From assembly GCF_013315695.1 (NCBI RefSeq), contig NZ_CP054353.1: a stretch of DNA of 64,000 nucleotides; one strand, written 5' to 3'. Shown piece by piece: positions 33,267-62,545 of the stretch. Source of the DNA: Escherichia coli. Its GTDB lineage: Bacteria > Pseudomonadota > Gammaproteobacteria > Enterobacterales > Enterobacteriaceae. Both the position numbers and the translations under genes were made by a program. Numbering within the stretch: position 1 is the stretch's first letter; the number at the start of each line of letters is the position of its first letter. The notes under the pieces were generated by a model. The model was not told the DNA's origin. It did not search any database and worked only from the letters and a program-made list of their open reading frames with translations.

Positions 33267-33342
33267 TTTTCGGCCTGAAATAAAAAAGCCGCCTATTATC
33301 CGTTAATCCAGAGCAGGCGACAACAGGTTAACTGTAAGGTTA

Positions 33343-33783: not shown

Positions 33784-33868
33784 AGGTTCTCCAGAATAGC
33801 GGCGCAAACAGGCAAATCTAATTTTAGGGGCGTTATTATAAGGCTTTTATAACCGATCGCTACTTTCT

Positions 33869-35765: not shown

Positions 35766-35769
35766 AAAG

Positions 35770-35799
35770 AGGATGGTGCAATTAGCACCATCCATTTTT
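35770..35799 (+). terminator. Rho-independent terminator after ydgJ
   Basis: ggatggtgc-aatta-gcaccatcc followed by atttttg. Confidence 0.65.
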
Positions 35800-35800
35800 G

Positions 35801-36802: not shown

Positions 36803-36854
36803 GGTCGCACTCTTTTTCTGGATATAAAAGTGCGCACCATTATAAAAACAAAGC

Positions 36855-36900
36855 AGGGTAAAAATCCACGATTGCGCAACGATTTTTTACGTTGCGCAAT
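36855..36900 (-). terminator. Rho-independent terminator of malY
   Basis: attgcgcaacg-atttttta-cgttgcgcaat, 11-bp perfect stem, directly after the malY stop, followed on the minus strand by a T-run. Confidence 0.6.
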
Positions 36901-36905
36901 TGGGG

Positions 36906-38078: not shown

Positions 38079-38087
38079 ATCTTATCC

Positions 38088-40883
<2,796 letters not shown>

Positions 40884-40994
40884 TCCTCTCTTTATCTGCT
40901 ATACCTGGTAGTGTCCTTTCCTCAAGGTTAATGATAAAAAATGTGGCACACAGGCGGTGCCTTTTATTTTTACTGAAGTTCACAGGAGGTTTAT

Positions 40995-41762: not shown

Positions 41763-41855
41763 TACACTAACGGACCGGTAAACAGCCGTATGTGTTGTTT
41801 ACCGGGATAAACTCATCAACGTCTCAGCTAAATAACTGGCAGCCAAATTACGGCT

Positions 41856-41869
41856 ATTGGTTAACCAAT
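41856..41869. promoter_or_regulatory. Palindrome ATTGGTTAACCAAT upstream of uidR (candidate operator)
   Basis: Perfect 14-bp palindrome; a near-identical copy lies upstream of uidA (42903..42916). Confidence 0.4.
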
Positions 41870-41982
41870 TTCCGAGTGAAAAGTATACGAATAGAGTGTG
41901 CCTTCGCACTATTCAACAGCAATGATAGGCGCTCACCTGACAACGCGGTAAACTAGTTATTCACGCTAACTATAATGGTTTT

Positions 41983-42573
41983 ATGATGGATAACATGCAG
42001 ACTGAAGCACAACCGACACGGACCCGGATCCTCAATGCTGCCAGAGAGATTTTTTCAGAAAATGGATTTCACAGTGCCTCGATGAAAGCCATCTGTAAAT
42101 CTTGCGCCATTAGTCCCGGGACGCTCTATCACCATTTCATCTCCAAAGAAGCCCTGATTCAGGCGATTATCTTACAGGACCAGGAGAGGGCACTGGCCCG
42201 TTTCCGGGAACCGATTGAAGGGATTCATTTCGTTGACTATATGGTCGAGTCTATTGTCTCTCTCACCCATGAAGCCTTTGGGCAACGGGCGCTGGTGGTC
42301 GAAATTATGGCGGAAGGGATGCGCAACCCACAGGTCGCCGCCATGCTTAAAAATAAGCATATGACGATCACGGAATTTGTTGCCCAGCGGATGCGTGATG
42401 CCCAGCAAAAAGGCGAGATAAGCCCAGATATCAACACGGCAATGACTTCACGTTTACTGCTGGATCTGACCTACGGTGTACTGGCCGATATCGAAGCGGA
42501 AGATCTGGCGCGTGAAGCGTCGTTTGCTCAGGGATTACGCGCGATGATTGGCGGTATATTAACCGCATCCTGA
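41983..42573 (+). CDS. uidR: TetR-family repressor of the gus operon UidR
   Basis: 196-aa ORF with TetR HTH. Confidence 0.93.
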   Translation: MMDNMQTEAQPTRTRILNAAREIFSENGFHSASMKAICKSCAISPGTLYHHFISKEALIQAIILQDQERALARFREPIEGIHFVDYMVESIVSLTHEAFGQRALVVEIMAEGMRNPQVAAMLKNKHMTITEFVAQRMRDAQQKGEISPDINTAMTSRLLLDLTYGVLADIEAEDLAREASFAQGLRAMIGGILTAS

Positions 42574-42886
42574 TCCTCTCTCTCTTTCCGCGGGCTGGTG
42601 ACAACTGAGCCCGCGTTTCATATCGTAATTTCTCTGTGCAAAAATCATCCTCCCCGGGATCGGAGAATCCCACCTAAATATTCATCATAGCAATATATCA
42701 TGAGGGTTTATCGTTCCCAATATGTTCGAACGAACGTTCGATTGCTTATTTTGCGGCTTCTGTCAACGCTGTTTTAAAGATTAATGCGATCAATATCACG
42801 CTGTGGGTATTGCAGTTTTTGGTTTTTTGATCGCGGTGTCAGTTCTTTTTATTTCCATTTCTCTTCCGTGGGTTTCTCACAGATAA

Positions 42887-42916
42887 CTGTGTGCAACACA
42901 GAATTGGTTAACTAAT
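42887..42916. promoter_or_regulatory. Palindrome cluster in uidA promoter (candidate operator region)
   Basis: ctgtgt-gca-acacag inverted repeat followed directly by attggttaactaat; a separate cgaacgttcg palindrome sits at 42731..42740. Confidence 0.4.
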
Positions 42917-42962
42917 CAGATTAAAGGTTGACCAGTATTTTTATTTTAATGAGGAGTCCCTT

Positions 42963-45838
<2,876 letters not shown>

Positions 45839-45853
45839 GGTAATGACTCCAAC

Positions 45854-46357
45854 TTATTGATAGTGTTTTATGTTCAGATAATGCCCGATGACTTTGTCAT
45901 GCAGCTCCACCGATTTTGAGAACGACAGCGACTTCCGTCCCAGCCGTGCCAGGTGCTGCCTCAGATTCAGGTTATGCCGCTCAATTCGCTGCGTATATCG
46001 CTTGCTGATTACGTGCAGCTTTCCCTTCAGGCGGGATTCATACAGCGGCCAGCCATCCGTCATCCATATCACCACGTCAAAGGGTGACAGCAGGCTCATA
46101 AGACGCCCCAGCGTCGCCATAGTGCGTTCACCGAATACGTGCGCAACAACCGTCTTCCGGAGCCTGTCATACGCGTAAAACAGCCAGCGCTGGCGCGATT
46201 TAGCCCCGACATAGCCCCACTGTTCGTCCATTTCCGCGCAGACGATGACGTCACTGCCCGGCTGTATGCGCGAGGTTACCGACTGCGGCCTGAGTTTTTT
46301 AAGTGACGTAAAATCGTGTTGAGGCCAACGCCCATAATGCGGGCTGTTGCCCGGCAT
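45854..46357 (-). CDS. insB: IS1 transposase InsB
   Basis: 167-aa [61 protein letters not shown]... Confidence 0.95.
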
Positions 46358-46551
46358 CCAACGCCATTCATGGCCATATCAATGATTTTCTGGTGCGTAC
46401 CGGGTTGAGAAGCGGTGTAAGTGAACTGCAGTTGCCATGTTTTACGGCAGTGAGAGCAGAGATAGCGCTGATGTCCGGCGGTGCTTTTGCCGTTACGCAC
46501 CACCCCGTCAGTAGCTGAACAGGAGGGACAGCTGATAGAAACAGAAGCCAC
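46276..46551 (-). CDS. insA: IS1 InsA
   Basis: 91-aa [46 protein letters not shown]... Confidence 0.95.
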
Positions 46552-46606
46552 TGGAGCACCTCAAAAACACCATCATACACTAAATCAGTAAGTTGGCAGC
46601 ATCACC

Positions 46607-47310
46607 TTCGTGATGAAGGGGTGTATAACAGCCAGACGGGAAAATACGATAAACATCGCGCACGTTCTTTTTTAGCCGCCAGTTGGCATGATGATACCAG
46701 TCGCTATTCTCTGGGGGCATCGGTACAGAAAGATGTTTCCAATCAGTTACAAAGTATTCTCGAGAAAAGCATACCGCTCGACCCGAATTATACGTTGAAA
46801 GGGGAGTTGCTCGGCTTTTACGCGCAACTTGAAGGTTTAAGTCGTAATACCAGCCAGCCCAATGAAACGGCGTTAGTTAGTGGACAATTGACCTGGAATG
46901 CGCCGTGGGGAAGCGTATTTGGCAGTGGTGGTTATTTGCGCCATGCAATGAATGGTGCCGTGGTGGATACCGACATTGGCTATCCCTTTTCATTAAGTCT
47001 TGATCGTAACCGTGAAGGAATGCAGTCCTGGCAATTGGGCGTCAACTATCGTTTAACTCCGCAATTTACGCTGACATTTGCACCGATTGTGACCCGCGGC
47101 TATGAATCCAGTAAACGAGATGTGCGGATTGAAGGCGCGGGTATCTTAGGGGGTATGAACTATCGGGTCAGCGAAGGGCCGTTACAAGGGATGAATTTCT
47201 TTCTTGCTGCCGATAAAGGGCGGGAAAAGCGCGATGGCAGTGCGCTGGGCGATCGCCTGAATTACTGGGATGTGAAAATGAGTATTCAGTATGACTTTAT
47301 GCTGAAGTAA
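46607..47310 (+). pseudogene. uidC: Outer-membrane glucuronide porin uidC, 5'-truncated (C-terminal ~230 codons remain)
   Basis: 229-aa ORF starts immediately after IS1; beta-strand-rich sequence ending ...YDFMLK; position between uidB and ydgA. Confidence 0.7.
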
Positions 47311-47319
47311 GAAAAAAAT

Positions 47320-47346
47320 GCCGGAGAGAAAAATCTCCGGCGTTTT
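47320..47346. terminator. Bidirectional hairpin between convergent uidC and ydgA
   Basis: gccggagag-aaaaa-tctccggc followed by gtttt, preceded by A-run. Confidence 0.6.
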
Positions 47347-47355
47347 GGCTGTGAA

Positions 47356-48864
47356 TTACTGCTGCGGAATAGCGGGTACAGCCGGAACGTTTAATGCCGG
47401 CATCGCAAACATCCCAACAAAATCTTCCAGTGGCATTTTCTGCCCGTTTAACGTGATCTGACCGTTAGCATATTGCAGGCTGGTGGTGATGGTATTGTCC
47501 TGCAAGGTGGTCAGGCGGAACATCTGCCCCATTGCTGACGCACCTTCAACTTGCTGTTTCGCCAGTTTTTTTGCTTGATCTTCCTGATAACCTTCCAGCT
47601 TCGCTACCTGAGTCATAAACTCAGTTGCCATATCCACCGGAATGGTCAGTTTCGCATCCAGAGATTTAACCGAGCGGTCTACTTCCTGCGCCAGCGTTTG
47701 CGGCGCTTCTTTAGTCGTTGCCGGATCTTTCAGGAACAGCGACAGATTCAGCGCACTTTCACCCTGACTGTTTTTCCAGCTTAGCGGCGCGATAGTAATC
47801 ACCGGATCGCCTTTCAACATCAGCGGCAGGGCGCTAAAGAAGGCTTCCGTCACTTTCTCCTGATAAAGTTCGGGATTGTTGGCAATTTCTGGCTGTGCCA
47901 GCAGCGCCTGAGTTTGCGCGTTATATTGCTGGCTAAACTGATGCCAGGCTTCACCATCAATCTGGCCGACTTTTAAAGTCAGCTTGCCGCTGCCTAGATC
48001 CTGATTCTGTACCTTCAGGCTGTTTAGCGAGTAATCCAGTTGGCTATTGATCGTTTTACCGTCATTGACCAGATCCGATTTACCGCTGATCTCCATGCCT
48101 TCCAGCAGTGCCAGTTCTTTGCCTTCCACTGAAATGGTCATTTTTTCCAGTGACAGTTTTTGGTTTCCTACGCGCTCACCAAAACTTGCCAGCGTGCTGG
48201 AACCGTCGGTTTTCAGATTATTAAAGGTCAACTGCACTTTCTGGTTGTATTCGTTAACTGCGTCTATCCGACCACTTTGCGCCTCCCCGGAAAGGGAGAT
48301 AGCTTTGCCGTCTCTGTCCGCATTTAACTGGAACTCGCCGCCGCTAAAGGCGACTTTTTCATCCTTTTGCTCGTAATTCAGTGGCTTGAGCGAAATATCG
48401 GAACTGGAATCTCCGCTGTAACCAATGCGGGAGTTAATCTCAAAAGGCGTTTCACCTTTTGCCATATCAAACAGTGGCTTGCTAACTTCGTTATTAACCA
48501 GCGTGGTTTGAATTGATGCCATCGACGGGAGCAGGTTCAGTTTTTTTAGCTGGGCAAGGGGGAAGGGACCATGATCAACCGATTCGTTGAAGATGACGCT
48601 CTGACCGCTTTTAATCCACGGATTTTCTTTCCCGGCAATGGGTTTCACCAACAGTTGCAATTGGCTGCTGAATACGCCGCGATGATAGTTTTGATAACTC
48701 ACTTCCAGGTTGGATTCAGGAGCGGTCAGTTTGAGTTGCGCGTTCGCCTGCGCGACCATCTCTTCGAGATGGGTTTCAATCTTCTTGCCTGTATACCATG
48801 CGCCGCCTGTCCAGACTACGCCTAGCGCAACAATGACGCCTACCGCTACCAGCGATTTATTCAT
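47356..48864 (-). CDS. ydgA: DUF945 family protein YdgA
   Basis: 502-aa ORF with N-terminal signal/anchor; synteny. Confidence 0.88.
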   Translation of the reverse strand: MNKSLVAVGVIVALGVVWTGGAWYTGKKIETHLEEMVAQANAQLKLTAPESNLEVSYQNYHRGVFSSQLQLLVKPIAGKENPWIKSGQSVIFNESVDHGPFPLAQLKKLNLLPSMASIQTTLVNNEVSKPLFDMAKGETPFEINSRIGYSGDSSSDISLKPLNYEQKDEKVAFSGGEFQLNADRDGKAISLSGEAQSGRIDAVNEYNQKVQLTFNNLKTDGSSTLASFGERVGNQKLSLEKMTISVEGKELALLEGMEISGKSDLVNDGKTINSQLDYSLNSLKVQNQDLGSGKLTLKVGQIDGEAWHQFSQQYNAQTQALLAQPEIANNPELYQEKVTEAFFSALPLMLKGDPVITIAPLSWKNSQGESALNLSLFLKDPATTKEAPQTLAQEVDRSVKSLDAKLTIPVDMATEFMTQVAKLEGYQEDQAKKLAKQQVEGASAMGQMFRLTTLQDNTITTSLQYANGQITLNGQKMPLEDFVGMFAMPALNVPAVPAIPQQ

Positions 48865-48964
48865 AATGATTATCCATAAAATGAAATCAGGCGGACTGGC
48901 CGCCTGAAGGTGTTATAAGCCTTTAATAAGCTTAGCAAGAGATGTTAATTTTTTCAGTAAGCTC

Positions 48965-50140
48965 TTACAGCTTGTTGTAAACACGCGCTAAACGGCCGTG
49001 GCCTTTGACAGTCACCGGTGATTCGTTGGCGGCAATAAACGCTGATTCACCCGGTTTAAGCTGTAACTGCTGAGAACCTTTCCACAGCGTTGCATCGCCT
49101 TCGACGCAGAACAAAATGGCGGCACTCTGCTGGCTGATGGTGGTTTCTTTATCACTAAGGTCATGCAGCGAGAAGGCAAAATCATCCACAGGAATCGGGA
49201 AGTCCAGTTCTGCACCTTGTTTCACCGGCTGGGTCAACAACTGGTTAGCCGGTTTGGCTTCGAACTTCACATTGGCAACCAGTTCCGGAATATCAATATA
49301 TTTAGGCGTCAGACCCGCACGCAGCACGTTATCGGAGTTCGCCATCACTTCCAGCGCCACGCCTTGCAGGTAAGCGTGCGGCGTTTCAGCGAACAGGAAC
49401 ATCGCTTCGCCAGGATTCAATTTCACCACATTCAGCAACAGCGGGGAGAACAGACCGCTGTCATCCGGGTAAAATTCAGAAATTAAACGAATCGTTTGCC
49501 ACGGTTCACCCTGCTGACTGTCGAGCGCCGATTTTAAAATCGCCAGCGCGCGGGATTTTTCTTCACCCTGCATATTCAACAGGCTGGCGAACAGTTCGCT
49601 TAAACGTTCGGCATCAGGCTGTTGTAAAAAGTGAGCAATCGCCGGATGTGCACCTGCGACCGGCTGGAGCAGGGAGACAATCTCGGAAAACTCACGAAAC
49701 GCGTTCATCGCAAGGAAAGGCGTCAGCGCAAAAACCAGCTCCGGCTTGTGGTTAGGATCTTTATAGTTACGCTCGGCGGCATCCATCGGAATACCTGCGG
49801 CATTTTCTTTGGCAAAACCGATTTCAGAATTGCGTTTGTTTGGATGAACCTGAATGGAGAGCGGCTGTGCTGCGCATAATACTTTGAACAGGAAAGGCAG
49901 TTCGCCAAAGCGTTTGGCAACGGCCTCTCCGAGCAGAGTCGATTTATCACTCTCAATCACATCACGCAGTGAAACGATATCTCCGGCGGCATTCTGCACT
50001 CGTGAACTGCTTTTCGGATGTGCGCCCATCCACAGCTCGGCCATCGGCTGGCTGGACGGATTTTCCATACCATAAAGTTCAGTCAACGCCGTTTTGCTGC
50101 CCCAGGCATAGTTTTGCACTGAGTTAATGAGTTTTTGCAT
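48965..50140 (-). CDS. manA: Mannose-6-phosphate isomerase
   Basis: Start at MQKLINSVQNYAWGSKTALTELYG (ATG 50138-50140), 391 aa. Confidence 0.95.
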   Translation of the reverse strand: MQKLINSVQNYAWGSKTALTELYGMENPSSQPMAELWMGAHPKSSSRVQNAAGDIVSLRDVIESDKSTLLGEAVAKRFGELPFLFKVLCAAQPLSIQVHPNKRNSEIGFAKENAAGIPMDAAERNYKDPNHKPELVFALTPFLAMNAFREFSEIVSLLQPVAGAHPAIAHFLQQPDAERLSELFASLLNMQGEEKSRALAILKSALDSQQGEPWQTIRLISEFYPDDSGLFSPLLLNVVKLNPGEAMFLFAETPHAYLQGVALEVMANSDNVLRAGLTPKYIDIPELVANVKFEAKPANQLLTQPVKQGAELDFPIPVDDFAFSLHDLSDKETTISQQSAAILFCVEGDATLWKGSQQLQLKPGESAFIAANESPVTVKGHGRLARVYNKL

Positions 50141-50338
50141 GATCAATCCCTGTTTTAATGTGGAAATTAATCCCGCTATTAAAGCAAGAATCCTACGGGA
50201 AGTAACCTGGAGCCGCAAAAAGTCGTACTAGTCTCAGTTTTTGTTAAAAAAGTGTGTAGGATATTGTTATTCGCTTTTAACAGGGCAACGGAACACCCGC
50301 CCAGAGCATAACCAAACCAGGCAGTAAGTGAGAGAACA

Positions 50339-51985
50339 ATGTCAAACAAACCCTTTCATTATCAGGCTCCTTTTCCACTCAAAAAAGATGATACTGAGTA
50401 TTACCTGCTAACCAGCGAACACGTTAGCGTATCTGAATTTGAAGGGCAGGAGATTTTGAAAGTCGCACCCGAAGCGTTAACTTTGTTGGCGCGTCAGGCG
50501 TTTCATGATGCGTCATTTATGCTGCGTCCGGCTCACCAACAACAGGTGGCCGACATTCTGCGTGACCCGGAAGCCAGCGAAAATGATAAATATGTGGCGC
50601 TGCAATTCCTGCGCAACTCCGACATCGCGGCGAAAGGCGTTCTGCCAACCTGTCAGGATACCGGCACCGCGATTATTGTTGGTAAAAAAGGGCAGCGTGT
50701 ATGGACCGGTGGCGGTGATGAAGCGGCGCTGGCACGCGGTGTCTATAACACTTATATCGAAGATAATCTGCGCTACTCGCAAAACGCGCCGCTGGATATG
50801 TATAAAGAGGTGAATACCGGCACCAATCTACCAGCGCAGATCGATCTTTATGCCGTTGATGGCGACGAGTACAAATTCCTCTGTATCGCCAAAGGTGGCG
50901 GTTCGGCAAACAAGACGTATCTCTATCAGGAAACCAAAGCGTTACTAACGCCGGGGAAACTGAAAAATTACCTGGTTGAGAAGATGCGCACGCTGGGTAC
51001 GGCGGCCTGTCCTCCGTATCATATTGCGTTCGTTATTGGTGGAACTTCTGCAGAAACGAACCTTAAAACGGTGAAACTGGCTTCCGCTAAATACTATGAT
51101 GAACTGCCAACGGAAGGGAATGAGCACGGACAGGCGTTCCGCGATGTGGAACTGGAAAAAGAATTGCTGATCGAAGCGCAAAATCTTGGTCTGGGTGCGC
51201 AGTTTGGCGGTAAATACTTCGCTCACGACATCCGCGTGATTCGCCTGCCACGTCACGGCGCATCCTGCCCGGTCGGTATGGGCGTCTCCTGTTCTGCTGA
51301 CCGTAATATCAAAGCAAAGATCAACCGTCAGGGGATTTGGATCGAAAAACTGGAACATAATCCAGGCAAATATATCCCGGAAGAGCTGCGCAAAGCGGGA
51401 GAAGGCGAAGCGGTGCGCGTTGACCTTAACCGTCCGATGAAAGAGATCCTCGCACAGTTGTCGCAGTATCCCGTTTCTACACGCTTATCGCTGAATGGCA
51501 CGATTATCGTTGGTCGTGATATTGCTCACGCCAAACTGAAAGAGCGGATGGATAACGGTGAAGGGCTGCCGCAGTACATTAAAGATCATCCGATTTACTA
51601 CGCGGGTCCGGCCAAAACGCCGGAAGGTTATGCTTCCGGTTCTCTTGGCCCAACGACCGCCGGCCGGATGGATTCTTATGTCGATCAACTGCAAGCGCAG
51701 GGCGGAAGTATGATCATGCTGGCGAAAGGCAACCGCAGCCAGCAGGTGACGGATGCCTGTAAAAAACACGGCGGCTTCTACCTTGGCAGTATCGGTGGTC
51801 CGGCCGCTGTATTGGCGCAGGGTAGTATTAAGAGCCTGGAATGTGTTGAATATCCGGAACTGGGAATGGAAGCCATCTGGAAAATTGAAGTGGAAGATTT
51901 CCCGGCATTTATCCTTGTGGATGATAAAGGAAATGACTTCTTCCAGCAGATACAACTCACACAGTGCACCCGCTGTGTGAAATAA
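50339..51985 (+). CDS. fumA: Class I fumarate hydratase FumA
   Basis: 548-aa [32 protein letters not shown]...; could in principle be the paralogue fumB but flanking manA indicates fumA. Confidence 0.92.
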
Positions 51986-52004
51986 ACAGAGCCGCCCTTC
52001 GGGG

Positions 52005-53430
52005 TAATGCCGATCAGTTAAGGATCAGTTGACCGATCCAGTGGCTGTGTAAGAATCCGGAAACGCTCACTTGTTTCCGGATTTTTTTATGCACATTGGA
52101 CAGGCTCTTGATCTGGTATCCCGTTACGATTCTCTGCGTAACCCACTGACTTCTCTGGGGGATTACCTCGACCCCGAACTCATCTCTCGTTGCCTTGCCG
52201 AATCAGGTACTGTAACGCTACGCAAGCGCCGTCTTCCCCTCGAAATGATGGTCTGGTGTATTGTTGGCATGGCGCTTGAGCGTAAAGAACCTCTTCACCA
52301 GATTGTGAATCGCCTGGACATCATGCTGCCGGGCAATCGCCCCTTCGTTGCCCCCAGTGCCGTTATTCAGGCCCGCCAGCGCCTGGGAAGTGAGGCTGTC
52401 CGCCGCGTGTTCACGAAAACAGCGCAGCTCTGGCATAACGCCACGCCGCATCCGCACTGGTGCGGCCTGACCCTGCTGGCCATCGATGGTGTGTTCTGGC
52501 GCACACCGGATACACCAGAGAACGATGCAGCCTTCCCCCGCCAGACACATGCCGGGAACCCGGCGCTCTACCCGCAGGTCAAAATGGTCTGCCAGATGGA
52601 ACTGACCAGCCATCTGCTGACGGCTGCAGCCTTCGGCACGATGAAGAACAGCGAAAATGAGCTTGCTGAGCAACTTATAGAACAAACCGGCGATAACACT
52701 CTGACGTTAATGGATAAAGGTTATTACTCACTGGGACTGTTAAATGCCTGGAGCCTGGCGGGAGAACACCGCCACTGGATGATACCTCTCAGAAAGGGAG
52801 CGCAATATGAAGAGATCAGAAAACTGGGTAAAGGCGATCATCTGGTGAAGCTGAAAACCAGCCCGCAGGCACGAAAAAAGTGGCCGGGACTGGGAAATGA
52901 AGTGACAGCCCGCCTGCTGACCGTGACGCGCAAAGGAAAAGTCTGCCATCTGCTGACGTCGATGACGGACGCCATGCGCTTCCCCGGAGGAGAAATGGCG
53001 GATCTGTACAGTCATCGCTGGGAAATCGAACTGGGATACAGGGAGATAAAACAGACGATGCAACTGAGCAGGCTGACGCTGAGAAGTAAAAAACCGGAGC
53101 TTGTGGAGCAAGAGCTGTGGGGTGTCTTACTGGCTTATAATCTGGTGAGATATCAGATGATTAAAATGGCGGAACATCTGAAAGGTTACTGGCCGAATCA
53201 ACTGAGTTTCTCAGAATCATGCGGAATGGTGATGAGAATGCTGATGACATTGCAGGGCGCTTCACCGGGACGTATACCGGAGCTGATGCGCGATCTTGCA
53301 AGTATGGGACAACTTGTGAAATTACCGACAAGAAGGGAAAGGGCCTTCCCGAGAGTGGTAAAGGAGAGGCCCTGGAAATACCCCACAGCCCCGAAAAAGA
53401 GCCAGTCAGTTGCTTAACTGACTGGCATTA
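52005..53430 (+). mobile_element. IS4 copy 1 (1426 bp), no target-site duplication
   Basis: 18-bp imperfect terminal inverted repeats TAATGCCGATCAGTTAAGG / CCTTAACTGACTGGCATTA; flanks ccgcccttcgggg vs gtccccagggaga differ. Confidence 0.93.
52089..53417 (+). CDS. insG: IS4 transposase (DDE, IS4 family)
   Basis: [66 protein letters not shown]...; identical to the ORF in copy 2. Confidence 0.93.
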
Positions 53431-54230
53431 GTCCCCAGGGAGACGTTTTCTCCCGTAGCCAGTATTTTTCCATTACGCATCAGAGAGACACCCACGCCCG
53501 ATGCTTTTGTTGCATCTGGTGCTGTGTTAGCAAACACATGTCTGGCACTGTCAGTGGTAGCACCCGAAAGATAAAATGAGAGTTTTTGTTCACTTGAGCA
53601 ATATACGCCAAGGGGTATTTCTGCGCTTCCAGGAAAGTCCGGGAGATTCACGGTGACATTACGACTATCAACGGTGCAACCGCCTGTTGGCATAACAACA
53701 CTGTTATTTGAAATAATATTCCACGTAAAATTACGCGGATTTCCGCTTCCTAACGTGGCAATTTTATACATATGAATACGGGCAATAACTTCCCCTGCTT
53801 TTATGACAACTCCACCGGCCGCTCCGACTGGGGTAATATAGAGTTTTAACGGTAATGGCATCGGTGTCTTATCACCAATATCTAATACATTAGTATTTGT
53901 CGTCAACGGGAAGGGGTAGGTCACATTATTCCAGTACAGTGATCCTTTATATGACTGTAGGGAGCCTGCGAAAGCTGATCCTTGTACCAGGTTTATATGA
54001 TCAGTGTCGTACCAGCCGCCGTAATCATTCCAGCAACTTATATGCTGAGACAAGTCTACAACCAGATTCTGGCCCGGTTGTATTACAGGGTCGAGATTAA
54101 CATAAACAGAGGTTGTACCTGCTCCAATACTTGACCCGCCATCGACATTACAACTGAAGGCAAAAACTTTGCCTGCCATTAATAGAAGATAAATACCGAA
54201 CAGAAGCTTCATACTTATTGTTTTACCCAT
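53431..54230 (-). pseudogene. ydeQ: FimH-like fimbrial tip adhesin (ydeQ-like), C-terminus truncated by IS4
   Basis: 274-aa ORF aligns to FimH-type adhesins (GQNLVVDLS...VMPTGGCTV...VNLPDFPGS...) but stops 7 codons inside IS4 copy 1, missing roughly the last 35 residues. Confidence 0.7.
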
Positions 54231-54289
54231 GATATATCCTAAGGTTAAAAAATTGATTTAAAAAGGAGGCTAAGAAAATCGAATCGACG

Positions 54290-54793
54290 TTATTGCCAGG
54301 TGTAGATCACATTGATTAGCGCCTCGATCGTTCCCTGGCTTGCGTTTCCATTCACCGTGATAGCTCTTGCCTTAAGTGGAAACTGTGCATTACGAGTGAT
54401 CTCATCAACAATAACCGTTTTGCTATCGCCATTTTTTAACGTCGCATCCTGGTCATCCCTTAGCTCTATCTGAATATTTTCGGCTGTACCTTCATTTTTG
54501 TAATACCCCGTATTGTCAGTTGAACCTGTCACGATTGCCGTCACTGCACTTGTTTCAACCGGACAATCGGTTAATGACAAAGTAATATTGTGCCAGCCAG
54601 ATGCAGAACCAGGTTGTTGCAGATTGCGTGTATAAAGATCCCCGAGATTAACGTTAGCTTCTTTGGTTTGAATAGTGCATGGTTTAGCGCCTACCCGACC
54701 ATTAACAGTGATAGTGACATCGGCGGCCTGGAGAGTTGCTGTGAATAATGTGCAAAACGTAGCTAACAGGAACCTCTTGTGAAGTCTTTTCAT
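54290..54793 (-). CDS. ydeR: Fimbrial minor subunit (ydeR-like), 167 aa
   Basis: Signal peptide plus type 1 pilin-like sequence ending ...YTWQ; length matches remembered YdeR. Confidence 0.7.
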   Translation of the reverse strand: MKRLHKRFLLATFCTLFTATLQAADVTITVNGRVGAKPCTIQTKEANVNLGDLYTRNLQQPGSASGWHNITLSLTDCPVETSAVTAIVTGSTDNTGYYKNEGTAENIQIELRDDQDATLKNGDSKTVIVDEITRNAQFPLKARAITVNGNASQGTIEALINVIYTWQ

Positions 54794-54805
54794 ATCTGAC
54801 TCTGA

Positions 54806-55336
54806 TTATTGAAATTCAAGGGTAAAGGTTGCCGAAGCGCTCACCAGTCCAGGATTGACGGACTTCTGAGTTGACTTCAAACGAGCGGAGTAAGGCAAAA
54901 TATTGTTCTGTTCTGGTACCAATGGGATCCACTGCATCTCGGCATGAAGGTCATTCAATTTCACCGGACGCATATTTCCGTCCAGTATTTCTATACCCAA
55001 ACCGGAGGCCGTATTGCTTCCTTCATCCAGTTTCAACAGAGTATTATTTTCTGCATCCTCAATACCGTTAAATGCAACCCGAACTCCCGTTGTCCCTTTG
55101 CTGCATTCACTTAATGTAATCTGAAAAGGGACGGCTGGACTTGTGCTACCGGTCGTTGGAAATTGTCTGGCACTGTTTTTTTGGAGATCTACGGTAAAAT
55201 TAAGCGAATCCGATGAGACTGTGCAGCCATAATCGAGAACGCGCCCGCTAATTTTAATAACGCTATCTGCGGATAAAGCAGAATAGGTGGTTAACCCCAG
55301 ACATAAACCGAGGAAAATAACGTTATTGTATTTCAT
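54806..55336 (-). CDS. ydeS: Fimbrial subunit (ydeS-like), 176 aa
   Basis: Signal peptide plus pilin fold ending ...TFTLEFQ; length matches remembered YdeS. Confidence 0.7.
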   Translation of the reverse strand: MKYNNVIFLGLCLGLTTYSALSADSVIKISGRVLDYGCTVSSDSLNFTVDLQKNSARQFPTTGSTSPAVPFQITLSECSKGTTGVRVAFNGIEDAENNTLLKLDEGSNTASGLGIEILDGNMRPVKLNDLHAEMQWIPLVPEQNNILPYSARLKSTQKSVNPGLVSASATFTLEFQ

Positions 55337-55349
55337 AATCTATTGTTCC

Positions 55350-56149
55350 TTAGCGACAGATTGCTGTCTGCTGGTTCAGCAAGGTTCCAGGAGAGACTGC
55401 AGGAAGCTTGTAATCGACAATACAGTTTGAGTTTTTATCATTGCCCCATGAAACCTGTAATTTCCCTGACTGCGGAAGTCCAGTCAGATAAACCTGACCA
55501 TTTTCCGCGACAATGCTGCCATTTTTATTCTCTCCGTGAGTGACAATTGCACCGAATGGAACGCTTTTATTACCGTACTTCAACGTCATTAATACTTTCC
55601 CGCCGATTTGTGCATTAAATGTTGCTCTGGCAATAGCACCGTGAGTTGGGATGACAGTGACTACGGTTTCATCCAGTTCAACATTATCTGCAAGGGAATT
55701 CGCGTTAAGAGCGACACGATTTTCTCTATATTCTGTCGCAAATGGTAATATGGCATAGCCACGCCAGTCGGTATGAATTCCGGTCTGGTTCTCTATTTTG
55801 ACATTATCAGCGCCAGGAGCCTTAACCAGAACCATTGTGTCGCCCAGCGGCTGTCCAAAGGTGATGCCATCAGCATGAGCAATAATCCCACCACTCATTC
55901 CGTAATAAATCTGGCTGCTGTCACCACTCCGACTGTAACCGACATTCGTATTACCGTAAGCTCCACGATAATTAAGAGAACTGTAACCATTGGTGCCAGA
56001 CGATGTATTACCCCCTTGGGTGTTACCGACCTGAACGCTATAATTCAGGTTATTATCCGGCAGCAGAGTGCCATAAACCCCTGATAGGTTGGTCATGCCG
56101 CCTTTCAAATCGTTTGACATACTGTAACTGGCGTTTGAATTACGAAATG
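55350..56149 (-). pseudogene. ydeT: Fimbrial usher C-terminal fragment (ydeT-like), interrupted upstream by IS2
   Basis: ORF 55350..56177 resembles FimD-family usher C-terminal domains; ORF start lies inside IS2. Confidence 0.7.
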
Positions 56150-56240
56150 TAGACTGGCCCCCTGAATCTCCAGACAACCAGTATCACTTATTTAAGTGAT
56201 AGTCTTAATACTAGTTTTTAGACTAGTCATTGGAGAGCAG

Positions 56241-56606
56241 ATGATTGATGTCTTAGGACCGGAGAAACGCAGACGGCGTACCACACAGGAAAAGATCGCA
56301 ATTGTTCAGCAGAGCTTTGAACCGGGGATGACGGTCTCCCTCGTTGCCCGGCAACATGGTGTAGCAGCCAGCCAGTTATTTCTCTGGCGTAAGCAATACC
56401 AGGAAGGAAGTCTTACTGCTGTCGCCGCCGGAGAACAGGTTGTTCCTGCCTCTGAACTTGCTGCCGCCATGAAGCAGATTAAAGAACTCCAGCGCCTGCT
56501 CGGCAAGAAAACGATGGAAAATGAACTCCTCAAAGAAGCCGTTGAATATGGACGGGCAAAAAAGTGGATAGCGCACGCGCCCTTATTGCCCGGGGATGGG
56601 GAGTAA
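56241..56606 (+). CDS. insC: IS2 InsC (OrfA)
   Basis: [56 protein letters not shown]... Confidence 0.93.
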
Positions 56607-57469
56607 GCTTAGTCAGCCGTTGTCTCCGGGTGTCGCGTGCGCAGTTGCACGTCATTCTCAGACGAACCGATGACTGGATGGATGGCCGCCGCAGTCGTCA
56701 CACTGATGATACGGATGTGCTTCTCCGTATACACCATGTTATCGGAGAGCTGCCCACGTATGGTTATCGTCGGGTATGGGCGCTGCTTCGCAGACAGGCA
56801 GAACTTGATGGTATGCCTGCGATCAATGCCAAACGTGTTTACCGGATCATGCGCCAGAATGCGCTGTTGCTTGAGCGAAAACCTGCTGTACCGCCATCGA
56901 AACGGGCACATACAGGCAGAGTGGCCGTGAAAGAAAGCAATCAGCGATGGTGCTCTGACGGGTTCGAGTTCTGCTGTGATAACGGAGAGAGACTGCGTGT
57001 CACGTTCGCGCTGGACTGCAGTGATCGTGAGGCACTGCACTGGGCGGTCACTACCGGCGGCTTCAACAGTGAAACAGTACAGGACGTCATGCTGGGAGCG
57101 GTGGAACGCCGCTTCGGCAACGATCTTCCGTCGTCTCCAGTGGAGTGGCTGACGGATAATGGTTCATGCTACCGGGCTAATGAAACACGCCAGTTCGCCC
57201 GGATGTTGGGACTTGAACCGAAGAACACGGCGGTGCGGAGTCCGGAGAGTAACGGAATAGCAGAGAGCTTCGTGAAAACGATAAAGCGTGACTACATCAG
57301 TATCATGCCCAAACCAGACGGGTTAACGGCAGCAAAGAACCTTGCAGAGGCGTTCGAGCATTATAACGAATGGCATCCGCATAGTGCGCTGGGTTATCGC
57401 TCGCCACGGGAATATCTGCGGCAGCGGGCTTGTAATGGGTTAAGTGATAACAGATGTCTGGAAATATAG
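56564..57469 (+). CDS. insD: IS2 transposase InsD (OrfB, expressed by -1 frameshift from insC)
   Basis: 301-aa ORF overlapping the insC 3' end in the -1 frame; DDE integrase-type sequence. Confidence 0.93.
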
Positions 57470-57480
57470 GGGCAAATCCA

Positions 57481-58125
57481 AAATGCCGACTGACTGTCTG
57501 TGCGCATCCAATGACTAAAGGGAACATTAAGCGTAAAAGCGAGTAAATGATCCCGATCGTTTTGCCATATATTATTGGAATAGCTGTAATTCAGCGAAGT
57601 CGTAATATCACTAAACGGCACATTTAATCCAAATGATATTTGCTGGTCGCTGCGTGACGTGTTCCAGTAACTTTGGCGACTGGCACTGAAAAATGTCGTA
57701 CCGTAATTTCCAAGCTGCTGAGAGATGCTTATTTGTTCCTGACCACGCTTACTGTAGAACAGATTAAAATAATCAATAAATTGTGTCTGCTCATTGCTGT
57801 CTCCGGTAGGAGGCTTGACGGTGTAACCACTCATTCGACTGTAGGCACTGTCGGATAAGTTATAAAAACCTTGCGTAGAATAGCGATATCCTGCGACCTG
57901 GATATTGGTTCCCGTCTGGTAGAAGGATTTGCTGTAGACGGATTTAATCGATTGCCCGCTGTGACGGGTGCCATCTGCAAGTGTCGTATTGGCCTGCGTG
58001 ATATCGAAAGAAAAGGCACCAAAAAGTCCTAAATCTTTACCAATACCAAGGTTGAAGGCCTGATAATCTTCTGCAATTTGCATTCCGCCATAAGGCGTCC
58101 AGTTTCCTTCCAGTCCATGCATCAA
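57481..58125 (-). pseudogene. ydeT: Fimbrial usher internal fragment (ydeT-like); N-terminal part of the usher absent
   Basis: ORF 57394..58125 is usher-like until it runs into IS2; together with 55350..56149 about 480 codons, roughly half of a full usher; upstream is AT-rich non-coding. Confidence 0.65.
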
Positions 58126-58506
58126 GTCATTCTGTTATTGCTTATAAAACAAGAATCATTCTTGATGGGATATTGCCCTGAGAATATAGTTTCCAGGGTT
58201 ATTACATTTCACGAAGAACGATAATATCTTTAAATTACAAGGACACCTAATCACAACAAGTTTATTGCAGCACTTGTTGTAGAGAGTATTTGCAAAGACA
58301 TTTTATGTCGCTAAATAACATGACGATTTCATTATGCATGTTATTTATAAACCGTGACTAAACAGAATATTATTGCGAACAAGGGAAGTGTCAGGAAAGG
58401 TCAAGAGCGACCAATGGTTTATATGGCTATAAATCATTAGCTATAGTTAATGTTTGCCTGGTGTAACTAACACGGAATTGCTCTAAACAGATAAGTGCAG
58501 GGTTTA

Positions 58507-58761
58507 TTAAAGCTGACCGACAGACTTTCTTAACCTGGTAATATCTCTCTTAGGTGACTCTCCAAACATCCGCGAATATTCCCGACTGAAATGGGATAAG
58601 CTTTCGTAACCGACAACATAGGCTGCAGTGGTGACATCGTAATGTTCATTCAGCATCAGTCGCCTGGCTTCATTGAGGCGTAGCCATTTCTGATACCGGA
58701 GTGGACTCATTCCCGCAAGCTGTATGAAGTGTTGATGGAAAGAGGGGGTGTTCATTTGCAC
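58507..58761 (-). pseudogene. yneL: AraC-family regulator C-terminal HTH fragment (yneL-like)
   Basis: 84-aa ORF with AraC-type second HTH (...YVVGYESLSHFSREYSRMFGESPKR...); no intact N-terminal domain upstream. Confidence 0.6.
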
Positions 58762-59150
58762 GCGGTTTGCCAGCCTGACTCTTCAACGCAGGGAAGATGC
58801 GGCAAACGGCAAACCTGCATACCAGCCAGCCTATATCCGGTATGCACAGGCCAATCATGAAAGAGGAGAGGCTTTATGTTCTGGAACCCTGAAGTAATAA
58901 CGACGACCGGAAAATCGCTTCGCATCACTCAAATCACATTTAACATAATATACATTATGCGCACCAACATAAACCAAGGAAGAATCCAGTCGTTGGCGGT
59001 CATGATTGTCGTGCTCATTAATAACGACCAAACCCCATATTAACTGCCGCATCAAAAACGCCATGATCCGCGCGATGCCTGGGCCTCCATCTGATTCATG
59101 AAAGTGACAACGGTCTGGCATAACGGCTGGCTAACCACTCCGGTGCATAC

Positions 59151-61119
59151 TTAAAGGTGTGCGCGCCGTTGGCTAACTTCGTTAAGTTCGCCGGTCACGT
59201 TTTTTAGCGTTAACAGACCGTCACTAGCAATATTTCCTCTGCCTAACCCCTGCGTATTGTCGAGGCTGACTTCCGCATTTGGGCTAATGCTGGTTAACGC
59301 ATTGTAGCGTGCATTAAGCCCCTCGATAGCCAGTGTTCCCCCTGTAACATTCAGGTTTCCGCCACCTGTCAGTTCGCCCTGACTGATCCCACCTTTATTC
59401 ACCGTCAGCGAACCTTCTTTGAACAAAACAGTCGAACCCATCAGCCCGGTGAATGTCTCCACCGTCTGGGCCGATCCATTAAGATCGACGATGGCCGCGT
59501 TGCTGATGTTCAGTTCCCGGGTGTTGCCCAGCGCGCCATCCGCATCGGTACGTAATGTCCCCATCTGAACATAGGTTGCCCCCTGATAGTCGTTCTGACC
59601 GTTGGAAAGCGAAACCTGTCGCACCGTATTGATTGCCAGATCCCCTTCACCACCGATTTTTGCCGACATATCGGCCGTTGCGCCATAGGCTCCGCCATGT
59701 TCGGCTAACGTCAGCTTTTGCCCTCCATGGATGTTCAGCGCTTTCAGCCCATAGTTAACGTACAAACCATCACCTGGTGCGGTCGTGAGGCGGAATCCAT
59801 AATCACCCTCGGCGACCACCGTTCCGTTTTGCGCAATGTGTAACGTTTTGTCCGCTTCCACCTCGTCGCCCTGTAAATCACGTAACGTTAATGAGCCACC
59901 CGACCCAATAACCGTTTGCGCCTTCACCAGTTGAACGCCGACATGGCTATCATCGTGTTCCAGCAAATTGAGCGTCGTCAGAGGGTTATTCGCCATGGGA
60001 TCATTCCACGGTTTAGGCACGTCGATAAGCACGTCGCCCGTCCCGTTTACCTGATAGTTACGGCCTTTCCAGGTGTAGTCACCCGCGCCGACAACCAGCG
60101 TATCGACGCTGATATATCCCTCTGCAAGCGTCGCAGCAGGAATATCCGTATCGAAAATGAGCGTACCGCCATTCATGGCCAGTCCACCAATGGATTGCTC
60201 TCCCACTTTTACCGATGTGGTATTTTCACTGTCAGACTGCAACATCGCGTGAGTAAGCGCAGCGGTGTTGTCGCGTTCCAGAGTGAAGGTACTGTCTTTC
60301 AGTTGGGCAACACCGGCGAATTCAGTCCCTGTTGCATGGGTAAAGCCAAATATCTTGTCGGAGGATGACAGCTGCACTCGCATCAAGCCATCGCCTTTGA
60401 GCGCATTGGTCAGCGTGTAATCTCCTGCGCTGTTCGTTGATGCGAGAATGTCGAGCGTACCGGGGCTTGCAATGGTGACTTCACTCGAACCCATGCCTGT
60501 TACCCCATCTGCCGTATGTGACGCAATAGTCAGGAGGCCGTCATTGACCAGCGTTTTACCGCTATAAGTATTCCCTGCATTGAACACCGTATGGCCTGCA
60601 TCATGCATCACTTTTCCGTCTTTATCGTCACCCGTAATCAGCATATCGACCTGGTAGCCGGCATCACTGTTATTGGTATGATTAAAGACAAAAACGCCTT
60701 CGCCAAGACCAAACTCCACTTTCGTCGCATTGGTAATAAACCCGGCATCTGCCGCCACCTCACCGTGAGCAGCACCAATGTTTAGCGTTCCTACAGCAGG
60801 CTCAAAAACACCTAAGTAAACTTCTCCACCTTCGACATTCAGCGTGCCGTTATTCGTCAGGGTTAACGTACCTGTGCCAGTCGTCCCTACGTTCATATTG
60901 AATGTTTCAAGAAGAGAGTTCTGCCCATCCACCCGCACGTCGCCCTTACTTTTGTCATTCAGAGCTATCTGTGTATCACGCGCTTTAACTATACCTCCGG
61001 TGGTAATATTCAGTTCACCCGTACCTAATACACCGACCTGTAGCAATTGGGCGTTAGTAGATGACGTTTTTAAATTCCAGAGACTATCCGTTGAAATATT
61101 AACTATCCCCTTACCGGAG
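59151..61119 (-). pseudogene. AIDA-I-like autotransporter adhesin passenger domain, C-proximal part (no beta-barrel translocator follows)
   Basis: ORF 59151..61046 (631 aa), Gly/Thr/Asn-rich beta-helix-type repeats (TGTGTLTLTNNGTLNVEGG...); ends ...EVSQRRAHL without a barrel domain. Confidence 0.7.
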
Positions 61120-62545
61120 TAATGCCGATCAGTTAAGGATCAGTTGACCGATCCAGTGGCTGTGTAAGAATCCGGAAACGCTCACTTGTTTCCGGATTTT
61201 TTTATGCACATTGGACAGGCTCTTGATCTGGTATCCCGTTACGATTCTCTGCGTAACCCACTGACTTCTCTGGGGGATTACCTCGACCCCGAACTCATCT
61301 CTCGTTGCCTTGCCGAATCAGGTACTGTAACGCTACGCAAGCGCCGTCTTCCCCTCGAAATGATGGTCTGGTGTATTGTTGGCATGGCGCTTGAGCGTAA
61401 AGAACCTCTTCACCAGATTGTGAATCGCCTGGACATCATGCTGCCGGGCAATCGCCCCTTCGTTGCCCCCAGTGCCGTTATTCAGGCCCGCCAGCGCCTG
61501 GGAAGTGAGGCTGTCCGCCGCGTGTTCACGAAAACAGCGCAGCTCTGGCATAACGCCACGCCGCATCCGCACTGGTGCGGCCTGACCCTGCTGGCCATCG
61601 ATGGTGTGTTCTGGCGCACACCGGATACACCAGAGAACGATGCAGCCTTCCCCCGCCAGACACATGCCGGGAACCCGGCGCTCTACCCGCAGGTCAAAAT
61701 GGTCTGCCAGATGGAACTGACCAGCCATCTGCTGACGGCTGCAGCCTTCGGCACGATGAAGAACAGCGAAAATGAGCTTGCTGAGCAACTTATAGAACAA
61801 ACCGGCGATAACACTCTGACGTTAATGGATAAAGGTTATTACTCACTGGGACTGTTAAATGCCTGGAGCCTGGCGGGAGAACACCGCCACTGGATGATAC
61901 CTCTCAGAAAGGGAGCGCAATATGAAGAGATCAGAAAACTGGGTAAAGGCGATCATCTGGTGAAGCTGAAAACCAGCCCGCAGGCACGAAAAAAGTGGCC
62001 GGGACTGGGAAATGAAGTGACAGCCCGCCTGCTGACCGTGACGCGCAAAGGAAAAGTCTGCCATCTGCTGACGTCGATGACGGACGCCATGCGCTTCCCC
62101 GGAGGAGAAATGGCGGATCTGTACAGTCATCGCTGGGAAATCGAACTGGGATACAGGGAGATAAAACAGACGATGCAACTGAGCAGGCTGACGCTGAGAA
62201 GTAAAAAACCGGAGCTTGTGGAGCAAGAGCTGTGGGGTGTCTTACTGGCTTATAATCTGGTGAGATATCAGATGATTAAAATGGCGGAACATCTGAAAGG
62301 TTACTGGCCGAATCAACTGAGTTTCTCAGAATCATGCGGAATGGTGATGAGAATGCTGATGACATTGCAGGGCGCTTCACCGGGACGTATACCGGAGCTG
62401 ATGCGCGATCTTGCAAGTATGGGACAACTTGTGAAATTACCGACAAGAAGGGAAAGGGCCTTCCCGAGAGTGGTAAAGGAGAGGCCCTGGAAATACCCCA
62501 CAGCCCCGAAAAAGAGCCAGTCAGTTGCTTAACTGACTGGCATTA
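61120..62545 (+). mobile_element. IS4 copy 2 (1426 bp) with perfect 13-bp target-site duplication
   Basis: Same terminal repeats as copy 1; ccccttaccggag at 61107..61119 and 62546..62558. Confidence 0.95.
61204..62532 (+). CDS. insG: IS4 transposase
   Basis: Translation identical to copy 1. Confidence 0.93.

Follow-up and report, generated by a model that had tools for sequence, protein, structure and literature searches.

Why does fumA of this Escherichia coli genome adjoin the fimbrial gene ydeQ across an IS4 element? We analyzed the window, which is the whole stretch of 64,000 nucleotides, together with the corresponding loci of other E. coli genomes. The IS4 element at this place (copy 1) is one boundary of an inversion. 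Very probably, it is one junction of a chromosomal inversion of approximately 130 kb, which arose by homologous recombination between two oppositely oriented IS4 copies. The features around copy 1 are as follows.

50339..51985, + strand: fumA, class I fumarate hydratase gene, orthologue of K-12 b1612; intact, 548 aa, with its own stop at 51985
51992..52004, + strand: left copy of a 13-bp target duplication, CCGCCCTTCGGGG; it is the 5′ half of the rho-independent terminator hairpin of fumA
52005..53430, + strand: IS4 copy 1, 1426 bp, both ends uniquely matched
52071..53417, + strand: IS4 transposase ORF, 448 codons, called from TTG
53431..53442, + strand: right copy of a 12-bp target duplication, GTCCCCAGGGAG, from the insertion in ydeQ
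53431..54230, − strand: ydeQ 5′ fragment (FimH-like fimbrial adhesin gene), 800 of 915 nt, 3′ end missing
54290..54793, − strand: ydeR, fimbrial subunit gene
54806..55336, − strand: ydeS, fimbrial subunit gene
55350..58125, − strand: ydeT usher remnant, split by IS2
56150..57480, + strand: IS2 inside ydeT, 1331 bp, with an intact 5-bp duplication, AAATG

The preliminary description had regarded copy 1 as a synteny breakpoint, and the comparison with K-12 agrees with this. Left of copy 1, the window matches K-12 1,686,712-1,691,401 in the reverse orientation (98.1% identity). Right of copy 1, it matches K-12 1,586,935-1,589,659 in the direct orientation, over the 5′ part of ydeQ, ydeR, ydeS, and ydeT. 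In K-12, 99.8 kb lie between the two breakpoints, which agrees with the distance of about 100 kb given for the right-hand genes in the preliminary description. The last gene in the non-inverted flank is fumA; manA-ydgA-uidC lie alongside it, and a 99.99% identical record is annotated purR...manA-fumA. The inverted segment begins with the ydeQ 5′ fragment, whose K-12 match runs from 1,586,935 upward. As had been remarked, fumC is missing next to fumA; it was not found in the 64-kb window. PGAP gives the fumA of the window the name "fumB"; its position, however, is that of fumA. The ydeQ fragment is "fimbrial protein, missing C-terminus" in PGAP.

The range first given for the element, 51985-53431, located it correctly but was slightly too wide, since it also takes in the final base of the fumA stop codon, the 19 bp between gene and element, and a single base beyond the right end. 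The adjacency of fumA and a ydeQ-like locus also stands. However, the 3′ end of fumA is not fused to that locus: copy 1 starts 19 bp 3′ of the intact gene, the fumA terminator is split by IS4 with the coding sequence unbroken, and ydeQ is truncated. The left flank had been taken for half of a GC hairpin, the probable fumA terminator. The empty fumA-terminator site of K-12 is AGAGCCGCCCTTCGGGGCGGTTTTTTT, and the intact terminator folds as a GC hairpin with a U-run (-23.9 kcal/mol, z = -5.2), which bears out this reading.

Copy 1 belongs to IS4 (IS4 family, IS4 subgroup). Its 1426 bp agree with the size of approximately 1.4 kb, and its termini, TAATGCCGATCAGTTAAG... and ...CTTAACTGACTGGCATTA, are short, imperfectly complementary inverted repeats. 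The single transposase ORF contains the IS4 N-terminal domain (Pfam Nterm_IS4, 7.8e-33) and the DDE catalytic domain (DDE_Tnp_1, 1.2e-31), and the transposase is named "IS4-like element IS4 family transposase" (RefSeq WP_000483766.1) in near-identical records. The target duplication of IS4 is 11-13 bp long. A second copy in the window has a duplication of 13 bp:

61120..62545, + strand: IS4 copy 2, identical in sequence to copy 1, with a perfect 13-bp duplication, CCCCTTACCGGAG

In the close relative AF3 (NZ_OZ547117.1), the two insertions from which copy 1 derives are flanked by duplications of 13 bp (fumA terminator) and 12 bp (ydeQ). For the IS4 family, a target duplication of "approximately one DNA helix turn" is described (PMC2266710).

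In contrast to copy 2, copy 1 has no direct repeat at its ends. Its flanks are ...CAGAG CCGCCCTTCGGGG / IS4 / GTCCCCAGGGAG ACG..., and the lack of a target duplication had been noticed in the preliminary description. The two flanks are one copy from each of two parental duplications. Thus, copy 1 is a recombinant element, with its left end from the fumA-fumC insertion and its right end from the ydeQ insertion, and it lacks a target duplication of its own because of the recombination.

The junctions were searched for in 5,426 complete E. coli genomes; the window's own genome is outside this set. The junction of the window was detected in one of them, MSB1_4I. The reciprocal junction, which had been predicted beforehand and was searched for as a chimeric query, was also detected in one genome, again MSB1_4I. 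It reads ydeP-ydeQ3′-GTCCCCAGGGAG/IS4/CCGCCCTTCGGGG-CGGTTTTTTT-fumC-tus and lies 130.6 kb from the first junction. The two IS4 copies are in opposite orientation, on the + strand at 2,542,119-2,543,544 and on the − strand at 2,674,171-2,675,596. A second IS4 with reciprocal flanks, proposed at the outset as a check, is therefore present in MSB1_4I. The halves of the target duplications are swapped reciprocally: the window has the 13 bp of fum and the 12 bp of ydeQ around IS4, and the other junction in MSB1_4I has the 12 bp of ydeQ and the 13 bp of fum. No flanking base was gained or lost at the inversion junctions.

MSB1_4I is the closest relative of the window, with 8 SNPs over the 64 kb, all in unique DNA. 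Over window positions 1..57466, 7 mismatches were found. When the whole window was compared with 244 kb of MSB1_4I by local BLAST, the match jumped elsewhere in the record to the right of the ydeT IS2. MSB1_4I possesses a second, nested IS2-IS2 inversion of 87.7 kb, which the window does not have, and the ydeT IS2 is one of its boundaries. Furthermore, the origin-proximal and terminus regions of MSB1_4I are oppositely oriented, which implies another, larger inversion with respect to K-12. The 100% match of the junction had suggested that the window is the MSB1_4I genome itself; the 8 SNPs and the different arrangement right of IS2 ruled this out. Therefore, the window is a separate genome with the same junction. 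The reciprocal junction is documented in the near-identical MSB1_4I and presumably stands in for that of the window's own genome.

The uninverted states were also observed. In K-12, both sites are empty and each target sequence is present once. MS 21-1, of the same lineage, has the fumA-fumC IS4 insertion only, and its ydeQ is intact; it differs from the window by 2 mismatches in 6.1 kb. AF3 carries both insertions without the inversion, namely fumA-[13 bp]IS4[13 bp]-fumC and ydeQ3′-[12 bp]IS4[12 bp]-ydeQ5′, so that its duplications are unswapped (the fum 13 bp on both sides of one IS4, the ydeQ 12 bp on both sides of the other). A distance of 129,309 bp separates the two mutually inverted copies, and the genes follow the K-12 order. 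AF3 is thus a pre-inversion genome with both IS4 copies. In M15, as in AF3, both copies of the ydeQ duplication surround a single IS4. Simple IS4 insertions occur at the identical ydeQ site in the unrelated M15, MMC-J-0105, and SW070919, and the best match there was not the fumA-fumC IS4. All four junction sequences, the intermediates, and the reciprocal junction are therefore observed. An independent insertion at the fumA terminator in MS 21-1 was considered from the 12-bp, as compared with 13-bp, duplication and was withdrawn. Given the near-identity of MS 21-1 and the window, a 1-bp difference in the CC-run or an assembly error is likelier.

Based on these results, the following order of events is proposed. 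First, one IS4 would have entered the spacer between fumA and fumC, within the terminator hairpin of fumA, and duplicated 13 bp of its target (the state of MS 21-1). A second IS4, oppositely oriented, would have landed close to the 3′ end of ydeQ and duplicated 12 bp (the state of AF3). A crossover within the identical 1426-bp elements would then have flipped the segment from the ydeQ 5′ part to fumC. The products would be fumA-IS4-ydeQ5′, as in the window, and ydeQ3′-IS4-fumC at the far end, with one copy of each duplication per IS4. Because ydeQ is intact in MS 21-1, the genomes form a stepwise series, and the four near-identical genomes represent successive states: one IS4, two IS4 copies, the IS4 inversion, and the IS4 inversion plus the nested IS2 inversion. 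Recombination between inverted IS copies is known to invert the intervening segment and to leave one copy at each end (PMC5009759). The IS4-IS4 crossover is presumably RecA-dependent. IS4 matches number about 18 per genome in this lineage, and copy 1 is identical to copy 2, to the fumA-fumC IS4 of MS 21-1, to the reciprocal-junction IS4 of MSB1_4I, and to the ydeQ IS4 of AF3. Mapping of the crossover by SNPs between IS4 copies was tried and abandoned: the window and MSB1_4I have the same IS4 sequence, and the AF3 copies vary at two positions that are not shared. Thus, the near-uniform IS4 copies of the lineage make the crossover point unmappable and provide no sequence mosaic as proof of recombination.

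The same final structure can be reached in another way. Intramolecular transposition is a classic source of adjacent inversions: the fumA-terminator IS4 would attack the ydeQ target on the same chromosome and generate the second copy and the inversion at once. This one-step event predicts the observed junctions, with two inverted copies and one of each target duplication per junction, and MS 21-1, in which the fumA-fumC copy is alone, fits it as the starting state. However, both copies are found uninverted and with full duplications in AF3, a genome of the same lineage; a one-step event would skip this intermediate. The simple insertions at the ydeQ site in the three unrelated genomes are also against it. 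Furthermore, the Tn5/Tn10-type transposases of the IS4 family move their element by cut-and-paste without replication, so that it is not duplicated, and IS4-type elements are not known to transpose replicatively. We consider one-step transposition very unlikely.

An assembly artefact, in which identical IS4 repeats of 1.4 kb led to the joining of wrong flanks and the chromosome really has the AF3 order, is equally improbable. Short reads are unable to resolve a junction between identical copies, inversions of this kind are invisible to paired-end data (PMC5009759), and just one RefSeq complete genome has the junction. Nevertheless, the junction is common to two different genomes, the window and MSB1_4I, which are 8 SNPs and an IS2-bounded inversion apart, and the reciprocal junction of MSB1_4I is self-consistent. 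Since a closed circular chromosome contains both reciprocal junctions, a single mis-join is insufficient; both would have to be mis-resolved jointly. As for an arrangement that is ancestral in the lineage, with IS4 inserted at a pre-existing synteny breakpoint, its probability is negligible, and nothing in its favour was found. Copy 1 lacks a target duplication, the breakpoints agree base for base with IS4 sites that are uninverted in AF3, MS 21-1, and other lineages, the junction is missing from 5,425 of the 5,426 genomes, and MS 21-1 and AF3, of the window's own lineage, retain the K-12 order. The preliminary description had already proposed an IS4-IS4 recombination inversion, and the parental insertions in AF3 and the reciprocal junction in MSB1_4I support it. 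For annotation, the fumA/ydeQ adjacency is best treated as a real and recent IS4-driven junction, and not as a gene fusion, an acquired island, or an ancestral order.

Further to the right, the window contains the dif site of the replication terminus.

58507..58773, − strand: yneL-like helix-turn-helix remnant (PGAP annotation of MSB1_4I mapped to the window)
58938..58965, − strand: dif, the XerCD chromosome-dimer resolution site, exact 28-mer with 0 mismatches
59151..64000, − strand: autotransporter pseudogene of the yneO/ECSE_1600 type, split by IS4 copy 2

The dif site has the place and strand of K-12 dif, between yneL and hipA; hipBA was not found between dif and the autotransporter pseudogene in the window. 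The sign of the GC skew switches at dif, positive on the left and negative on the right. In MSB1_4I, the KOPS counts (+:− strand) are 7:0 to the left of dif and 1:8 to the right. The inverted segment comprises the ydeQ 5′ part, dif, TerC, a Qin-like prophage, TerB, tus, and fumC. No Ter site was found in the 64-kb window; TerB and TerC lie deeper in the inverted segment. From the copy 1 side, dif is 5.5 kb inside the segment, and approximately 125 kb remain on the other side. Since dif is inside the inverted segment, it remains the point of convergence of GC skew and KOPS. The inversion would shift dif by approximately 120 kb, and TerC and TerB would switch the fork direction that they block, with probable consequences for replication termination. 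The preliminary description was silent on dif, TerC, TerB, and tus in the segment, on the IS2 in ydeT, and on the nested inversion in MSB1_4I.

IS-mediated inversions in the E. coli long-term evolution experiment have been catalogued (summarised in PMC5009759). As in the IS inversions of E. coli and Shigella, identical IS copies lie inverted at both breakpoints, the segment is flipped without gain or loss of bases, and non-matching duplication halves flank each IS. Thus, the inversion is a well-documented case of a textbook IS-driven process, with no new mechanism. Unlike the inversions of the long-term experiment, the element here is IS4 and the segment spans dif, TerC, TerB, and tus. The single IS4 of K-12 is rarely active; it accounted for 8 of the 758 new insertions and for none of the recombinations (PMC5009759).

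The inversion described here includes dif, so that the convergence of GC skew and KOPS on dif is preserved and genes stay on the leading or lagging strand as before; in this it resembles the terminus-spanning ("X-alignment") inversions. Such inversions, which keep replication polarity, are commonly seen when bacterial genomes are compared. Unlike them, the present inversion is strongly asymmetric around dif (5.5 kb against approximately 125 kb), dif is displaced by about 120 kb, and TerC and TerB have moved across dif with reversed polarity. All inversions of the genome series include dif; they reposition dif, TerC, TerB, and tus but leave the polarity of the chromosome as it was. Studies on the tolerance of terminus rearrangements could make use of the series.

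It is conceivable, but rather doubtful, that the terminus flips repeatedly in this IS4- and IS2-rich lineage, with dif-containing inversions alone surviving, and that the nested IS2-IS2 inversion of MSB1_4I is compensatory. In that case, the nested inversion would return dif from approximately 76 kb to approximately 9 kb off the point opposite oriC. It would also restore the original polarity of TerC and leave the flipped TerB across dif. An unusually tight Tus/Ter fork trap of approximately 55 kb, with dif inside it, would result. In this event, the three relatives would be a natural series for the extent of dif displacement and Ter reversal that is tolerated in wild E. coli.

Two complete IS4 elements, both on the + strand, were found in the window by reading the sequence and searching for IS4 ends.

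52005..53430, + strand: IS4 copy 1, 1426 bp
61120..62545, + strand: IS4 copy 2, 1426 bp

The two copies are identical in sequence. Copy 1 is a canonical IS4, and Pfam matches Nterm_IS4 and DDE_Tnp_1 in its ORF at 52071..53417. An autotransporter pseudogene is the site of copy 2, an ordinary insertion flanked by a perfect target duplication of 13 bp, CCCCTTACCGGAG. When both flanks of copy 1 were read, no target duplication was found: CCGCCCTTCGGGG closes the left flank and the differing GTCCCCAGGGAG opens the right flank. A dyad-like pattern, CCC...GG(R)G, is common to the three target sequences.

In a RefSeq record 99.99 % identical to the window, the genes annotated left of copy 1 are purR...uidR-(uid remnants)-ydgA-manA-fumA, and those on the right are ydeQ'-ydeR-ydeS-ydeT'. 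The left flank aligned with K-12 MG1655 1,686,712-1,691,401 in reverse orientation (98.1 % identity), and the right flank with 1,586,935-1,589,659 in direct orientation (97.0 %). Thus, copy 1 is a synteny breakpoint, with the K-12 order reversed on the left and direct on the right. Since the K-12 annotation places ydeQ at 1,586,820-1,587,734 and the spacer between fumC and fumA at 1,686,589-1,686,730, the two breakpoints are 99.8 kb apart in K-12. The breakpoint, the missing duplication and the K-12 distance of about 100 kb had all been given correctly in the preliminary description. It had also taken the left flank for half of a GC hairpin, probably the fumA terminator, which agrees with the folding of the empty site: the 19 bp between fumA and copy 1 comprise the ascending arm of this terminator together with its loop. 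Uninterrupted in K-12, the site (AGAGCCGCCCTTCGGGGCGGTTTTTTT) forms a GC hairpin with a U-run after it (-23.9 kcal/mol, z = -5.2).

A 2.8-kb query across copy 1 was searched against 5,426 complete E. coli genomes. The fumA-IS4-ydeQ junction was detected in only one of them, MSB1_4I (NZ_LR898874.1), at 100 % identity. In 14 other genomes fumA-IS4 is followed by fumC, and in three an IS4 in ydeQ is followed by the ydeQ 3' end and ydeP. Therefore, each insertion site occurs separately in the normal gene order. The sole unusual trait of the window's lineage is its IS4 load, about 18 matches per genome, whereas PFM2, a strain derived from K-12, has a single copy (PMC5009759).

Parental states were found in two genomes of this lineage (1-3 mismatches per 5-6 kb). 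MS 21-1 (locus L001) has an IS4 within the fumA terminator, then fumC-tus, and an intact ydeQ. AF3 (NZ_OZ547117.1) possesses both insertions, uninverted: fumA-CCGCCCTTCGGGG|IS4|CCGCCCTTCGGGG-CGGTTTTTTT-fumC (L012) and ydeP-ydeQ3'-GTCCCCAGGGAG|IS4|GTCCCCAGGGAG-ydeQ5'-ydeR (L007). These elements lie on opposite strands, 129,309 bp apart, and each target sequence is present once in the K-12 empty sites.

A second IS4 with reciprocal flanks had been anticipated. We queried the complete genomes with a construct of the expected partner, in which IS4 stands between 900 bp of ydeP/ydeQ3' and 900 bp of the fumC side. It was found in one piece in exactly one genome, MSB1_4I, at 2,541,214-2,544,445. The site reads ...TTTACT GTCCCCAGGGAG|IS4|CCGCCCTTCGGGG CGGTTTTTTT...fumC, tus, rstB. 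The two junction elements of this record are 130,626 bp apart.

2,542,119-2,543,544, + strand of the record: IS4 of the reciprocal junction
2,674,171-2,675,596, - strand of the record: IS4 matching copy 1 of the window

The four parental flanks are thus redistributed, to the base, exactly as one reciprocal exchange within an inverted IS4 pair would predict. Such a single exchange would invert the intervening segment.

The window could be taken for MSB1_4I itself; this was ruled out by eight SNPs, all in unique DNA, and by a rearrangement bounded by IS2. Window 1..57466 matches the reversed MSB1_4I record with seven mismatches, and 56150..64000 matches another part of it, forward, with one mismatch; the overlap of the two matches is an IS2.

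Window 56150..57480: IS2 inserted in ydeT, its 5-bp duplication (AAATG) intact, the same in AF3
MSB1_4I 2,581,150-2,582,480 and ~2,670,135-2,671,451 (L004, L006): two IS2 copies

In MSB1_4I the AAATG duplication is split between the two copies. One lies between a prophage exonuclease fragment and ydeT-yneL-dif. The other is inverted, with the last 14 bp missing, and links ydeS-ydeT' with the remaining Qin-like prophage. The split duplication and rejoined flanks show that MSB1_4I carries a second inversion of 87.7 kb, absent from the window and nested within the IS4 inversion, bounded by the ydeT IS2 and by another in an exonuclease gene of the Qin-like prophage. The window thus comes from a separate, very close relative sharing the IS4 junction.

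The junction structure is also what a one-step intramolecular transposition would leave. This explanation is disfavoured by AF3, an intermediate with both copies uninverted, and by other lineages in which IS4 has simply inserted at this ydeQ site. An assembly artefact at the IS4 is likewise disfavoured: two independent genomes support the junction, which makes a simple mis-assembly less likely, and the reciprocal junction, verified in the sister genome, is consistent. An ancestral gene order is excluded by the single occurrence among 5,426 genomes and by the parental fumA-IS4-fumC order of AF3 and MS 21-1. The inversion proposed in the preliminary description is therefore supported in every testable respect. 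Inversions mediated by IS elements through homologous recombination are thoroughly known; the junction is a member of this class, and the mechanism is textbook. What is added is the proof through an intermediate and reciprocal junctions, the finding that the inverted segment carries dif, TerC, TerB and tus, and the nested IS2 inversion; the result is a tidy natural series that opens no new question.

The replication terminus features are as follows.

Window 58938..58965: dif, exact 28 bp, 5.5 kb inside the inverted segment
MSB1_4I 2,546,021, - strand: TerB
MSB1_4I 2,600,993, + strand: TerC

dif is positioned relative to yneL as in K-12, and the GC skew of the window is positive as far as dif and negative past it. 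The MSB1_4I inverted segment also holds tus, TerB and TerC; in K-12, TerB is on the + strand, upstream of tus. KOPS (GGGNAGGG) were counted in MSB1_4I, with the once-inverted fumC-rspB block as well as the ydeT-ydeQ block among the DNA covered. Left of dif the count is 7:0 on the + strand; right of it, the count is 1:8 (+:-). From what is established about the Tus/Ter and FtsK/KOPS systems, all polarity signals would still be directed at dif because each inversion includes dif, whose displacement would be the sole cost. With oriC taken between mioC and mnmG (about 5,232,100 in MSB1_4I; opposite point about 2,593,000), arithmetic from coordinates gives a distance of dif from the opposite point of ~44 kb for the ancestral arrangement, ~76 kb for the window type and ~9 kb for MSB1_4I. 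The window type should mirror the normal dif-TerC-TerB module: TerC and TerB would have changed sides relative to dif and would stop the opposite fork. The nested inversion returns dif and TerC to their original orientation; flipped TerB and restored TerC would then flank dif in MSB1_4I as a predicted ~55-kb trap.

dif also sits between copies 1 and 2, which are in direct orientation 7.7 kb apart (53431..61119), and recombination between them would remove it along with the yde fimbrial remnant. In uninverted AF3, dif likewise lies between two directly oriented IS4 copies. In MSB1_4I the terminus region (2,485,214-2,729,000, narZ...ydeP...purR) follows K-12 in ascending order and the origin-proximal regions (1-50,000 and 5,228,134-5,278,133; L016, L017; dnaA-dnaN-recF-gyrB...uhp) in descending order. 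Compared with K-12, this implies a putative terminus-spanning inversion of much larger size.

fumA (50339..51985) is intact, and its stop is 19 bp ahead of copy 1. Its terminator was probably lost through the IS4 insertion. Since the IS4 separates fumC from fumA after the inversion, any fumA-fumC read-through transcript would be lost; 136 bp upstream of fumC are kept at the reciprocal junction in MSB1_4I. The ydeQ reading frame enters the IS4 end, and the final 115 nt are absent. ydeQ is broken, yet its operon was probably already a remnant, because the ydeT usher is annotated as a fragment even in K-12. PGAP names 50339..51985 'fumB' in all RefSeq records consulted, and automated synteny checks could go astray on this naming quirk; the gene's position beside manA and fumC is that of the fumA orthologue.

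An IS4 at the exact fumA terminator position (51992..52004; L012-L015), with the same orientation and 13-bp duplication, occurs in 15 of the 5,426 genomes, in several lineages. The variants are 1-9 SNPs apart, and the right-hand duplication copy of L001 differs by one base from L012-L015. Either the site is a strong hotspot for IS4, or the insertion is old. At 45838..46606 and neighbouring positions (~43000..47300), an IS1 lies between truncated uidC and truncated uidB, and the 99.99 % identical record annotates a frameshift in uidA; thus, the beta-glucuronidase locus looks inactivated in this lineage. At 58126..58464, between IS2 and yneL, the window and MSB1_4I lack 822 bp of usher/chaperone remnant that AF3 has. 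Between dif and the autotransporter pseudogene (58966..59150) the window has no hipBA, the locus next after dif in K-12.
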